The notes beneath the pieces are model-generated. The model saw only the letters and a program-made list of their open reading frames with translations, did no database searches and was not told the origin of the DNA. A stretch of DNA of 64,000 nucleotides from Patescibacteria group bacterium (GTDB lineage Bacteria > Patescibacteriota > Minisyncoccia > Phycocordibacterales > JAGLPS01). Location of the stretch: positions 1,042-65,041 of the forward strand of contig JBBUCK010000041.1 of NCBI GenBank assembly GCA_038057845.1, given 5' to 3'. A program made the position numbers and the translations under genes. Positions 38,716-43,062 of the stretch are shown piece by piece (the stretch's first letter is position 1; the number at the start of each line of letters is the position of its first letter).

Positions 38716-39873
38716 TTAACTTCGAATTCTTCGTCCTTGAGAGCGAGGAGTAAGAGATGAGGGATGTTTTTTTAATCGGCCTCCACCCGAATGTAGTGTT
38801 TCAGTATGGGCGGGGACTTTATTGTTTAATTTATATGCTCTCCACAAGTCAATGTGGGGATTAAAGACGCCTGTTTTCTTTCTTATACGATCAATCCATT
38901 TTGGATTATCAATATACCATTGCAGGGTTTTAGCGAAAGCTTTTTCAAAAGAATACATCGGTCTCCATCCAAGTTCGGAAGTTATTTTTGTCGAGTCTAT
39001 GGAATATCGACGGTCATGTCCCGGCCGATCACCCACATATTCTATCCATGATTCGTCACGGTTAAAGTATTTCAAAATACGTTTCGCGATGTCGGTGTTA
39101 TCAAGTTCATTATCCGCACCAATGTGATATACACCACCCGGGGTTCCTTTGAGAAGACAGAGCTCTAAGGCATGGCAATGGTCAAGTACATACACCCAAT
39201 CTCTTACATGCCTACCATCACCATAGAGGGGCAATTTTTTATCCTCAAGCATACGCAACACAAAAAAAGGAATGATTTTTTCTGGATACTGATAGGGGCC
39301 ATAGTTGTTCGAACAATGTGTCACAACTATCGGCACCTTCCATGTTGAAAAATAGGACCGACACAAAAGGTCTCCCCCCGCTTTAGTTGCAGCATAAGGA
39401 ACATTGGGCGCGAAAAGTGTGTATTCATGAAAACGTTCTTTGGAATCGAGCGGCAGACTACCGTGGACTTCATCTGTTGAGACCTGAACATATTTTATAA
39501 CTGATACATTAGCCTTCACCGCTTCAGCTATATTAAAAACCCCCTCAATGTTGGTTTTTATAAATTCAAGCGATGCGCCATGAATACTCCGGTCGACATG
39601 CGTTTCAGCAGCAAAGTTTATAACATAATCAGGTTTGTGCTTTTTGAAAACTGCATCAACCGCTTTTTTATTGACGATATCACCTTTCACAAAGCGATAA
39701 TCAAGAGTGGGATTTTTGGAGATATCTTTATTGTTGTCGAGGTTTCCCGAATAGGTTAACTTATCGAAGTTAATAATTTTGACCGTAGGATATTTAGAAA
39801 AAATATACCGTATGAAATTCGAGCCTATAAAACCCGCTCCTCCACAAACTAAAATTGTCTTTTTATTGAAATT
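38716..39873 (-). CDS. rmlB: dTDP-glucose 4,6-dehydratase (ORF track start 39948; MNFNKK start more likely); unusual ~40-aa C-terminal tail
   Basis: ILVCGGAGFIGSNF, YAATKAGGD (Y-x3-K), HGASLEFIKTNIEG. Confidence 0.8.
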   Translation of the reverse strand, partial: NFNKKTILVCGGAGFIGSNFIRYIFSKYPTVKIINFDKLTYSGNLDNNKDISKNPTLDYRFVKGDIVNKKAVDAVFKKHKPDYVINFAAETHVDRSIHGASLEFIKTNIEGVFNIAEAVKANVSVIKYVQVSTDEVHGSLPLDSKERFHEYTLFAPNVPYAATKAGGDLLCRSYFSTWKVPIVVTHCSNNYGPYQYPEKIIPFFVLRMLEDKKLPLYGDGRHVRDWVYVLDHCHALELCLLKGTPGGVYHIGADNELDNTDIAKRILKYFNRDESWIEYVGDRPGHDRRYSIDSTKITSELGWRPMYSFEKAFAKTLQWYIDNPKWIDRIRKKTGVFNPHIDLWRAYKLNNKVPAHTETLHSGGGRLKKHPSSLTPRSQGRRIRS

Positions 39874-39895
39874 CATAGTTGTAATTATACTTGCA

Positions 39896-40837
39896 CTATT
39901 CTTTATTTTCTTGATTTTTATACCACTCATATGTGGATGTGATGCCATCTTTGAGGTCTATAGTGTGTTTCCAGCCAAGTTCGTGCAGCTTTGAAACATC
40001 AAGCAATTTTCTAGGTGTACCATCAGGTTTGGTTTGATCCCAGATGATTTTTCCCTCGAAGCCTACAATTTCTTTAATCAATTCTGCCAACGATTTTATG
40101 CTGATATCTTCACCAGTTCCGATATTGACGATTGAAGAATCATTGTAATTATTCATAAGAAAAAAACAAGCACTGGCTAAATCGTCTACATGTAGAAATT
40201 CTCGCAGAGCACGTCCTGTCCCCCAGACAACAACTTCACTATGACTATTTATTTTTGCTTCATGAAATTTACGTATAAGCGCGGGTAAGACATGTGAGTT
40301 TTTTAAGTCGAAATTGTCATGCGGACCATATAAATTAGTTGGCATAACTGAAATAAAATTTGTTCCGTATTGTTTGTTATATGACTGGCACATGATAATC
40401 CCAGCAATTTTAGCGATAGCATAGGCTGTATTGGTTGGTTCAAGTGAGCCTGTTAAAAGATATTCTTCTTTAATTGGCTGCTCTGCAAGTCGTGGGTAAA
40501 TGCATGAACTTCCTAGGAAAATAAGTTTCTTTACTTTATTAACATACGCGGCATTAATAATATTTGCCTCAATAAGTATATTTTCGTAGATGAAAGATGC
40601 TGGGTAGGTACTGTTTGCATGAATACCACCCACCTTCGCTGCGGCAATAAAAACATATTCTGGTTTCTCTTCTTCAAAAAAAGCACTTACTGCTTTCTGG
40701 TCAAGTAAATCAAGTTCCTTGCGAGTTCTTAATAGGAGATTGCCATATCCATCTTTCTCCAGCCTACGGACAATCGAAGAACCCACAAGCCCTCGATGGC
40801 CCGCCACATAAATTTTAGACTTCTTGTCCATTGCCAT
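39896..40837 (-). CDS. fcl: GDP-L-fucose synthase (GDP-4-keto-6-deoxymannose 3,5-epimerase/4-reductase)
   Basis: [28 protein letters not shown]. Confidence 0.85.
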
Positions 40838-40845
40838 ATATATTT

Positions 40846-43062
40846 TTATTCGCTATTTTTACTCTCGTGTTCCAAATCTGCCATTACCATAAGCTTTGCC
40901 AATTCCTTAAATGTGACGTTTGGCTTCCAGCCGAGTTTATTTTTTGCTTTTGAGTAGTCTCCTAAAAGTATATCAACTTCTGCTGGTCTAAAATATTTCA
41001 GGTCAACTTCAATAATAGTTTTACCTGTCTTTCTATCAATACCTTTTTCATTGAGACCTTTGCCTTTCCAGACAATGTCCATATCAAGATATTTTGCCGT
41101 TTCCTCAATAAATTCCCGAACAGTGTGCGTTTCGTTTGTCGCGAGAATGAAATCATCGGGGTTTTTGTGCTGGAGAATAAGCCACATACCATAGACAAAA
41201 TCTTTCGCGTAACCCCAGTCTCGCTTCGCGTCCAAATTACCCAAGTAGAGTTTCTTCTCCTTGCCTAATTGTATACGTGAAAGCCCTCGAGTTATTTTTC
41301 GTGTAACGAATGTTTCGCCGCGGCGGGGGGAATTATGCACGCGTGCTTTTCCAATTCCACAATGGAATTCTCCCGAAGAAGTTTCTAAATCGTAAAACCA
41401 ACCATCGTACTTCTGGATTTCCAAAATTTTTTTCACTTCAGAAGGCTCTTTCTTGAGATGGTGCGTGTCGCATGCAAAACCACCATGTTGGATTTTTCTT
41501 ATAAATGTACGCGAGATCCCCGTTATGTGCGCCATTTCTCTTTGTGATACTCCAGTGCCCACGAGTTGTCTTATAGATTGTTCCTTGAATACATTATTTG
41601 TGGTGGTGAGAATATTCAGTGAATAAAATATTCTGCCATCGTCTTTTGTCTCTACAGTGAGGTTAATATTTTGTTGTGTGGTTTTGTCGATAAGATACCA
41701 CAATCCCATGGCTAATGTGGGGGAATTCGTCTTGAAGTTCTTGAATTCATAAGTGCAGGGGTTTGCTTTCAAGCCGTCACATACATTATAGCCGCGCAAG
41801 AACGCAAGCATGACATGCGAAGGGGCGTTCAAAATAACTTTTGGCACGCGCTTAGTCTTATCTTTGTTATAGATATCGATACTGCGTAGCCAATTATTGC
41901 CACCAGCTAGTTGTAGCTGTCCTACGATATTTTTCTGATTAAAACCTGAACGGGAAGGATAGTATAGTGTGTGACCGCCAGTAACCTTTTTCCATAACAT
42001 ATCGAAATGTTGTCGTAATAGTGGATCCGAGTTTGTGAACTTAGCATGGACACCGATGCCTTTGGTGGCGTATGTGGCGGAACCGTCACCTACCATCATA
42101 CCCATAAGCTCCGCCTCTTCTTCGGAATTGGGTAATTGGCGACTTTGCGTATCTGGTTTAGGAAGATCAATGGAGTCAATACAGTCTCCGATTGCAATGT
42201 TCCCAGTTTCTTTTTCTTCTCCCCCTTTCATAAATACAACATGACTGGAAGTTGCCATGAATGCACCAGATCGTGCATTGATAAAGCGCGGATGTTTATT
42301 CTCCCTTTCAGTATCGTGCGGATAGGCGGAAGCAAATGTCACATCAACCCATCCCTGTTTGCTCCATACTTGCACCCCCGAAACTTCTTTTGATTGATAA
42401 TGCTTAAGAGATTCGTTGAATGTTACTATTTCTCGAATTGGTTTTATGTTAAATTCATTCGAACCGGTTTCTTTGCAAAACATAGGCATAAAAGATGACA
42501 CTGTCTCGTGATTGAATAAAATTCCGTTTGAAGCAAACATCCCATACGCTTCTCGATAGTTTTTTGTTATCCAATAGGCGTAAAGTTTAGCCACGCCGTA
42601 CGGTGAGCGAGGGTGGAAAGGAGTTTTTTCTGTTAACGGTAATTCAACCGTCTTACCGAACATCTCAGAGGATGAGGCTTGGTAAAACTTAGTTTTAGTT
42701 AGTCCGGTTTCGCGCATTGCGTCCAGAAGGCGAAGTGTACCAAGTCCTGTGACATCCCCAGTGTATTCCGGCATATCAAAGCTAACACGTACATGGCTCT
42801 GCGCACCTAAATGATAGATTTCATTAGGTTTAATTTCACTTAAAATACGGTTAAGATTACTCCCATCAGACAGATCTCCATAATGGAGAAATAATTTGAT
42901 GTTGTTTATATGGGGATCTTTATAGAGATGGTCAATCCTATCAGTATTAAACGTACTTGCTCGTCTGATAATGCCATGAACTTCATATCCTTTTTCAAGA
43001 AGGAGTTCAGCCAAATAAGACCCGTCCTGTCCGGTGATGCCTGTAATAAGAGCTTTTTTCAT
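40846..43062 (-). CDS. gmd: GDP-mannose 4,6-dehydratase interrupted by a ~391-aa intein (precursor 738 aa)
   Basis: N-extein [22 protein letters not shown]...ILFNHE and C-extein [16 protein letters not shown] match the conserved Gmd NHESPRRG region split by an insertion. Confidence 0.85.
41332..42504 (-). mobile_element. intein with LAGLIDADG homing-endonuclease domain inserted in gmd
   Basis: block B ATSSHVV (TxxH); two LAGLIDADG motifs [10 protein letters not shown] and [12 protein letters not shown]; block [25 protein letters not shown] ending HN + Ser(+1); N-terminal boundary uncertain (residue after NHE is Thr; a Cys lies 9 aa downstream). Confidence 0.7.

Follow-up and report, generated by a model that had tools for sequence, protein, structure and literature searches.

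Why does a GDP-mannose 4,6-dehydratase gene (gmd) of a Patescibacteria group bacterium encode 738 amino acids when Gmd without its insert is 347 amino acids long, and can an insert that begins with threonine remove itself from the protein? The gene lies at 40846..43062 on the minus strand of a 64,000-nucleotide stretch of contig JBBUCK010000041.1 (the window, meaning the whole stretch analysed, positions 1-64000). Its open reading frame (ORF) encodes an 83.9-kDa precursor in which an N-extein, an intein, and a C-extein follow one another in a single reading frame. We put at roughly 80% the probability that the insert is a full-length HINT intein, with a two-motif LAGLIDADG endonuclease and a helix-turn-helix (HTH) module, and that it splices by class 1 oxyester chemistry via Thr1.

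The gmd precursor and its junctions

An initial annotation of this DNA placed an insert of about 391 residues at 41332-42504, between NHE and SPRRG, and these coordinates match ours exactly. The N-extein (42505..43062, minus strand) comprises Gmd residues 1-186 and ends in GILFNHE. The intein (41332..42504, minus strand; 391 amino acids, 1173 bp, 44.1 kDa) occupies precursor residues 187-577 in frame, and its HINT splicing domain is split by the LAGLIDADG endonuclease and the HTH module. The C-extein (40846..41331, minus strand) starts with SPRRGETF and supplies residues 187-347 of mature Gmd together with the stop codon. Against the gmd model TIGR01472 the flanks score 552.4 bits (cut-off 415) over two stretches separated exactly by the insert, and PF16363 gives 490 bits, also in two stretches with the break after residue 186-187. 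By this profile evidence, which passes the equivalog cut-off, the host protein is GDP-mannose 4,6-dehydratase. No abrupt change in G+C content marks the insert. All six cysteines of the precursor lie inside the intein, and the mature 347-residue Gmd contains none.

Alleles that have no intein give the exact junctions. The 120 best matches of the spliced extein are intein-less Patescibacteria Gmds of 344-366 amino acids (79-92% identity) from Pace-, Parcu-, and Yonath-bacteria and other groups, and the closest match (P0095) is 100% identical across the whole N-extein. These matches identify the host as a bacterium of the Candidate Phyla Radiation (CPR), as the initial annotation had guessed. 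The DNA of this allele (L061 and L063) follows the window at 95% identity through the last base of Glu186, and the alignment restarts at the first base of Ser+1 at 83% identity. An intein-less gmd in close relatives, which the initial annotation had named as a check, does exist in this form, with up to 92% extein identity and with exactly 1173 bp absent. The contiguous motif NHES[PE]xR is found in 118 of the 120 intein-less homologues. NHE-SPRRG cannot be rebuilt in any other register, which makes Thr (ACA) the first intein residue, and not the Cys nine residues downstream. The earlier doubt over the N-terminal junction is thus settled for Thr1, both by the junction of the intein-less allele and by the lack of conservation of Cys10 that is described below.

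Divergence from L061 is asymmetric: the N-extein (42505-43062) retains 95% nucleotide and 100% amino acid identity, and the C-extein (40849-41331) 83% nucleotide identity. It may mark a tract of recombination or co-conversion that stops at the intein. The region of the probable fcl gene, which follows gmd in the window, is 74% identical to L061 and 83% identical to L063. A NUDIX gene that the window lacks comes after gmd in L061, L062, and L063, and is followed by an fcl-like gene in L061 and L062. The top-scoring match of the spliced extein (P0094, 545 amino acids) carries Gmd residues ~150-345 twice in tandem, which is a genuine internal duplication or else an artefact of assembly; P0094 was rejected as a further intein.

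Evidence that the insert is an intein

Searched alone against Pfam, the insert reaches 19.1 bits with LAGLIDADG_3 (PF14528), below the cut-off of 22.5, and has no Hint or Intein_splicing match. Pfam and NCBIfam also give weak HTH_19 and HTH_28 matches and sub-threshold intein-containing PRK models, and phmmer against the PDB finds PI-PkoII and a VMA intein at E values of 0.004-0.03. An alignment of 27 family inteins (A1) is the basis of the profile, of the AlphaFold2 model, and of the statements on invariance given here. Among these members, 23 of 27 match LAGLIDADG_3 (E<=0.01; best 3.9e-13) and nine of 27 match Intein_splicing (PF14890). The A1 profile matches the PDB inteins TliVMA (7qss, 6.9e-17) and PI-PkoII (7.7e-14), as well as the MjaTFIIB intein (1.4e-10, covering the N-terminal splicing half), with a weaker match to I-DmoI (about 2e-3).

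The structure predicted from A1 by AlphaFold2 has a predicted local distance difference test score (pLDDT) of 91.1 and a predicted template modelling score (pTM) of 0.86. In Foldseek, the model matches 7qss (2.2e-20), PI-PfuI (1e-15), PI-PkoII (4e-15), and PI-SceI (1.6e-10) over its full length and mini-inteins over part of it; the model and these matches together support a HINT fold. The initial reading of a LAGLIDADG intein in gmd is borne out by the family profile, the fold match, and the junctions of the intein-less alleles. The profile hits that it anticipated are obtained with the family profile and with the family members, which match intein and LAGLIDADG models, but not with the query alone, which is sub-threshold in Pfam. 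An RNA-level intron was rejected, as the insert is a continuous reading frame and a search of the 64-kb window at Rfam gathering scores found nothing, be it a tRNA, an rRNA, or a riboswitch.

The motifs that had been named from the sequence, namely TSSH, two LAGLIDADG helices (GDG and CDG), WFYDLET, a terminal HN, and Ser+1, are all present, and all features listed here lie on the minus strand. Thr1 (codon ACA, 42502..42504), the proposed N-terminal nucleophile, opens block A (42466..42504), with an invariant Pro7 and a non-conserved Cys10. His63, within YPH (42316..42318), precedes block B (42241..42252), which reads T85-S-S-H88 and has the TxxH pattern. LAGLIDADG motif 1 (42082..42123) carries the acidic residue D140 and motif 2 (41773..41820) carries D243. 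An optional three-helix HTH module (41470..41598), present in part of the family, lies between the endonuclease and block F (41350..41403), which contains D372 and H381. Block G with Ser+1 (41329..41349) reads KARVH390N391, and Ser+1 itself (41329-41331) is found in all Gmd alleles. Across A1, T85, H88, D372, and N391 are invariant and the LAGLIDADG glycines and acidic residues are conserved; H390 and Ser+1 are both present in the query. In more than 100 homologues, residue 1 is T, S, or C only, and never Ala, Pro, or Gln. Residue +1 is always Ser, or Thr in an Rmd-like paralogue. Directly after the block F His, Cys382 (FHCG, 41359-41361) is found in 23 of 25 Thr1 inteins from genomes; Ala takes its place in the Ser1 and Cys1 members and in two Thr1 members (L004 and L023), so that Cys382 is not obligatory.

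Distribution of the family and the Thr1 clade

When 5.8 billion proteins were searched with the insert, 93 matched, all of them Gmd-type proteins with a homologous insert in the same place. Scanning a single genome for each GTDB species with a query alignment of nine sequences, we found 57 loci with a homologous gmd intein. The intein is common in CPR genomes, with loci in Saccharibacteria and in Lipton-, Peri-, Doudna-, and Falkow-bacteria. It also occurs in DPANN archaea (Nano-, Woese-, Pace-, and Aenigm-archaeota) and in Omnitrophota, Planctomycetia, Bacteroidota/Saprospiraceae, a Cellvibrionaceae, Eremiobacterota, Acidimicrobiia, Rokubacteria, and others. IMG/VR contributed 16 further loci, mostly on low-GC contigs, three of them labelled as giant-virus metagenome-assembled genomes (GVMAG). 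At nearly every locus, a single open frame covers N-extein, intein, and C-extein without a break. The viral and giant-virus-like IMG/VR contigs L065-L075 (GC 21-35%, three GVMAG) have gmd genes with Thr1 inteins of 340-450 amino acids at the same site, and large viruses may be vectors between cellular lineages.

At residue 1, Thr is encoded by ACG, ACC, ACA, and ACT, Ser by both TCN and AGY, and Cys by TGY. When 104 distinct full-length inteins are placed in a tree by neighbour-joining, 45 of 45 Thr1 sequences fall in one clade of 46 leaves, the sole non-Thr1 leaf being the Ser1 sequence P0076. Two incomplete Ser1 sequences (P0008 and P0026) share the block A of this clade.

When the A1 profile was run against 1.84 billion cluster representatives, 8078 matched at E<=1e-3, 485 of them with E<=1e-30. 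Matches outside Gmd are inteins of family B DNA polymerases, RadA/Rad51, a subtilase, and other hosts (E 1e-70 to 1e-43), in which Pfam Intein_splicing scores up to 126 bits. Among the 90 representatives matched end to end, Thr1 is seen only in Gmd, in six of 47 hosts of the short-chain dehydrogenase/reductase (SDR) type, and the 43 other hosts carry 42 Ser1 inteins and one Cys1 intein. Outside Gmd, the closest relatives start with Ser1, the inteins of family B DNA polymerases being one example. Since Thr1 is confined to Gmd hosts among these 90, we regard it as a derived state within a mainly Ser1 oxyester group.

Two further arrangements were seen in this family. Residues ~197-525 of P0069 (669 amino acids), a metagenomic relative, form a second, unrelated-looking intein in the Gmd C-extein, with the junctions DWGHAKDY/CVDLDSE...FVSGN/CEAMYLILQQ; Gmd thus has at least two intein insertion sites. 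An SDR paralogue from Rokubacteria and Aenigmarchaeota (L051, L053, L058-L060; P0075-P0085) contains a homologous Ser1 intein with Thr+1, located one residue upstream of the Gmd site (AFNH/SVGRFTP...LVHN/TGPRRG). Judging by its AFNH/TGPRRG context, this paralogue resembles an Rmd-type or other Gmd-family enzyme.

Selection, mobility, and the endonuclease

The ratio of non-synonymous to synonymous substitution rates (dN/dS), estimated by the Nei-Gojobori method for few pairs and with many pairs saturated, is 0.05 (L026/L027), 0.11 (L011/L015), 0.06 (L009/L010), and 0.15 (L021/L022) in pairs of Thr1 inteins, values comparable to those of the exteins. Between the query N-extein and the intein-less allele there are 28 synonymous differences and no non-synonymous difference. 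This pattern, in which 28 nucleotides and no amino acids have changed, argues that Gmd is in use and hence that the intein splices.

Compared with inteins of Saccharibacteria, Omnitrophota, Planctomycetia, and DPANN, the query intein shows 62-72% identity, and yet identity between the C-exteins of the same genes and the query C-extein is just 52-68%, when intein-less CPR Gmds reach 92%. Likewise, L005 and L013 share 77% intein identity and 56-57% extein identity, and L052 and L057 show the reverse discordance, with exteins closer than the intein. Such discordant identities indicate separate histories of the intein and the host gene, as homing predicts.

Both endonuclease motif helices end in Asp (ELMGMMVGD140G and FLRGYNVCD243G). 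In the AlphaFold2 model, beta strands come after each of the two helices (128-140 and 229-243), and Foldseek finds the LAGLIDADG endonucleases I-SceI, I-DmoI, and I-AniI. On the modelled fold and the two acidic-ended helices, the insert has the predicted architecture of a two-motif monomeric LAGLIDADG enzyme. Conservation within the family is highest in the segment that follows motif 2. The HTH module spans residues about 303-345, with model helices at 304-315, 321-328, and 332-339, and occurs in 27 of 45 Thr1, four of 21 Cys1, and none of 38 Ser1 inteins; as modelled, it most likely serves as an accessory domain for DNA binding.

The putative endonuclease would cut intein-less gmd within the sequence coding for NHE/SPRRG, and repair would then copy the intein into the break. 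The sporadic distribution across phyla is consistent with such homing, which would explain the spread of the family across phyla, domains, and giant viruses. In some members of the family the endonuclease motifs are degenerate. The candidate 60-bp intein-less site, taken from L061, is GCTTCAAACGGAATTTTATTCAATCACGAG/TCGCCCAGACGTGGAGAAACCTTCGTCACA. As reconstructed, the target site departs from the natural intein-less allele at seven of 60 bases, all on the C-extein side.

Proposed splicing mechanism and alternatives

We propose that splicing would begin with an N-O acyl shift, in which the Thr1 hydroxyl attacks the carbonyl of Glu(-1) with the help of Thr85 and His88 of block B, Asp372 of block F, and probably His63. 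The N-extein would then be transferred to Ser+1 by transesterification. Cyclisation of Asn391, aided by His390, would free the 44.1-kDa intein, and an O-N shift would rebuild the FNHE-SPRRG loop of an active 39.8-kDa Gmd.

Perler's definition of class 1 admits Ser1, Thr1, or Cys1 (PMC5222942), and the query has the features of this class: a nucleophilic residue 1 (Thr), TxxH, the block F Asp, and HN followed by Ser+1. Thr1 was reported as never seen in a natural intein, and the S1T mutant of a related Ser1 intein, Tli pol-2, does splice (PMC2807308). The NX-motif His, which is reported as specific to Ser1 oxyester inteins, is preceded by Arg or Lys and lies within hydrogen-bonding distance of Ser1 (PMC10189870). 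The column of His63 contains His in 25 of 25 Thr1 inteins and a residue other than His in 12 of 13 Cys1 inteins; all Ser1 inteins have a His nearby in the alignment, and Ser1 members of the Eremiobacterota group read Y[RKH]H. From these alignments, we hypothesize that His63 may be the equivalent of the NX-motif His. Class 3 (WCT) was rejected, as the positions of Trp B:12, Cys F:4, and Thr G:5 (definition in PMC2807308) are held by Val90, Asp372, and Val389. A class 2 (KlbA-like) assignment appears unlikely because position 1, being T, S, or C throughout the family, never holds a non-nucleophile.

Several points weigh against class 1 splicing via Thr1. Threonine is sterically a poorer nucleophile than serine or cysteine. 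His63 is preceded by Pro and not by Arg or Lys, and the "RH" of TFIIB lies three residues off in the hidden Markov model alignment from which the equivalence is drawn. The trees are neighbour-joining only, and hence distance-based. A 2023 review lists cysteine or serine alone at position 1 (PMC10663303). Splicing, the role of Thr1 as nucleophile, and endonuclease activity are moreover inferred here. Finally, the query by itself scores below every Pfam intein and LAGLIDADG gathering score; we do not take this as a refutation because the family profiles are significant.

The alternative that survives best accepts the intein and denies Thr1 its role. In a class-2-like course, Ser+1 would attack the Glu(-1)-Thr1 bond and form the branched intermediate in one step, and such a course has in its favor that class 2 inteins can do without an N-terminal nucleophile (PMC5222942) and that Thr1 is otherwise unreported in natural inteins (PMC2807308, PMC10663303). 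We nonetheless consider it unlikely: the restriction of position 1 to T, S, and C, the retention of all four Thr codons, and the presence in every one of 25 Thr1 members of a His typical of Ser1 oxyester inteins all argue for a working nucleophile, as does the splicing of the S1T mutant.

Splicing via Thr1 also faces the suggestion that the intein is decayed and can no longer splice, so that this gmd copy would be a relic or Gmd activity would have been lost in the genome. The 738-residue ORF is intact, however, with every splicing residue and both LAGLIDADG acidic residues present, Thr1 is conserved clade-wide under purifying selection, the exteins are constrained (none of the 28 N-extein differences is non-synonymous), and a probable fcl gene lies directly downstream. 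Against this stand the degenerate endonuclease motifs of some family members and the consideration that a non-canonical residue 1 could be a disabling mutation; on the whole, we find a dead intein quite improbable.

It is more improbable still that the insert is a lineage-specific domain kept in mature Gmd, for example as a DNA-binding moonlighting domain. The HTH module, and a query that alone has no significant Pfam Hint match, could be read in that way. Yet the insert has significant profile and fold homology to inteins and invariant splicing residues, its presence or absence among close relatives is sporadic and precise, and it interrupts the near-invariant NHESPRRG loop seen in 118 of 120 homologues.

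The initial annotation had pointed to the Cys nine residues downstream of a non-canonical Thr. A real N-terminal junction at this Cys10, the canonical nucleophile, would leave the nine residues TVSSFMPMF in mature Gmd, and this scarcely credible option, together with Cys10 as the true nucleophile, is rejected because most relatives, close Thr1 inteins among them, have F, V, Y, L, or I in its place, intein residues 1-9 align with block A of Ser1 and Cys1 homologues, with the invariant Pro7, and the intein-less allele has none of the 27 bases in question.

Comparison with known inteins and significance

The Ser1 inteins of family B DNA polymerase (PolB), namely PI-PkoII/Tko pol-2 (PDB 2cw7) and Tli pol-2, share with the Gmd intein a HINT domain with a two-motif LAGLIDADG endonuclease, oxygen nucleophiles at positions 1 and +1, and an HN end. 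Many of the close non-Gmd relatives are PolB inteins at the YGD/TDS site that start with SVxxDTP. The Gmd intein differs from them in its host, a sugar-nucleotide dehydratase and not a replication protein, in its natural first residue, Thr and not Ser, and in an extra HTH before block F. The TliVMA intein (PDB 7qss/7qsu) is the best profile and structural match, with LAGLIDADG and blocks F and G aligned, but its host is V-ATPase subunit A and identity in the structural alignment is about 19-20%. The 7qss/7qsu structure is that of a C1A mutant, which means that native TliVMA has Cys1.

The MjaTFIIB intein (PDB 5o9i; Pasch et al. 2023, PMC10189870) is a "cysteine-less" Ser1 oxyester intein with an NX-motif His, and in both inteins a His lies ~20 residues upstream of block B. 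Its crystallised chains, of 184-195 amino acids, are of mini-intein size, and it has SRH where the Gmd intein has YPH at the putatively equivalent position. Class 2 inteins (KlbA, Ala1) and class 3 inteins (WCT, MP-Be DnaB) also have a non-canonical residue 1; unlike the Gmd Thr1 intein, they have no position-1 nucleophile. The only other nucleotide-sugar host that we found listed is a UDP-glucose/GDP-mannose dehydrogenase of Euryarchaeota (Novikova et al. 2016, PMC4760082), which is a COG1004 dehydrogenase and not the SDR dehydratase Gmd, with its intein at a different site. Finally, WhiA (Foldseek E 4e-6) has a LAGLIDADG domain followed by an HTH, as in the Gmd intein, although its LAGLIDADG domain is degenerate and the protein is a free-standing transcription factor without HINT; this resemblance may reflect the shared endonuclease fold alone.

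Our literature searches agree with the initial annotation that Gmd is not a reported intein host. They returned no report of a Gmd intein, a CPR intein, or a natural Thr1, with partial coverage that did not include InBase, such that a prior mention is possible. We are inclined, with some reserve, to regard these sequences (at least 45) as the first recognised natural clade of inteins that begin splicing with a threonine, with a single origin from Ser1/Cys1 inteins and a new host in Gmd, and as having moved among CPR, DPANN, other phyla, and giant viruses.

A Thr1 clade that is conserved, selected, and mobile makes natural Thr1 directly testable, and the T, S, and C versions at the same site are natural controls. 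If Thr1 is the working nucleophile, these would be naturally evolved inteins free of junction cysteines, and they could show what an active site requires for activating a secondary alcohol. It is also possible that slow oxyester splicing might gate the synthesis of GDP-fucose and cell-surface glycans. The host range is widened to the most conserved loop of a nucleotide-sugar enzyme, as opposed to a replication protein, and through this family uncultivated lineages of CPR and DPANN are connected to giant viruses. Inteins with only oxygen nucleophiles at both junctions are wanted for ligating proteins under oxidising conditions (PMC10189870, PMC11923092), and the Gmd intein family may supply new ligation scaffolds.

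Genomic neighbourhood and annotation of relatives

Directly downstream of gmd, an SDR gene (39896..40837, minus strand) with the Pfam domains Epimerase/GDP_Man_Dehyd is probably fcl (GDP-fucose synthase), a name supported by synteny with the fcl-like gene of L061. The fcl product catalyzes the next pathway step after Gmd. The last 53 bases of the fcl-like gene are shared with an ORF for a dehydratase-type SDR of 410 amino acids (38716-39948, minus strand). This ORF is longer than expected by ~30 residues at the N-terminus, and a basic tail at its C-terminus runs ~60 residues beyond the Pfam domain; given the extra N-terminus and the overlap, translation probably starts at a codon further downstream. 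Upstream of gmd are an HTH_17 ORF and an O-antigen-ligase/TPR protein. Domains for sugar-nucleotide or cell-surface glycan functions are present in the four ORFs that were checked around gmd. The window consists mostly of densely packed ORFs and looks like a large glycan-synthesis region.

Three related database proteins (P0001, P0022, and P0027) start inside the intein, and two of them are called GDP-mannose 4,6-dehydratase by NCBI. The DNA at L001 (3392-5647), L002 (2801-4972), and L003 (2696-4951) contains one continuous precursor ORF each, which indicates that these proteins are start-codon mis-calls hiding the intein and the N-extein. On the same DNA, it was rejected that the database proteins of ~310 and 550 amino acids are split or frameshifted genes or split inteins. 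Such truncated gmd calls by public pipelines make the intein invisible in protein databases, and the same truncated pattern is seen, at the protein level, in P0030, P0037, and P0042.

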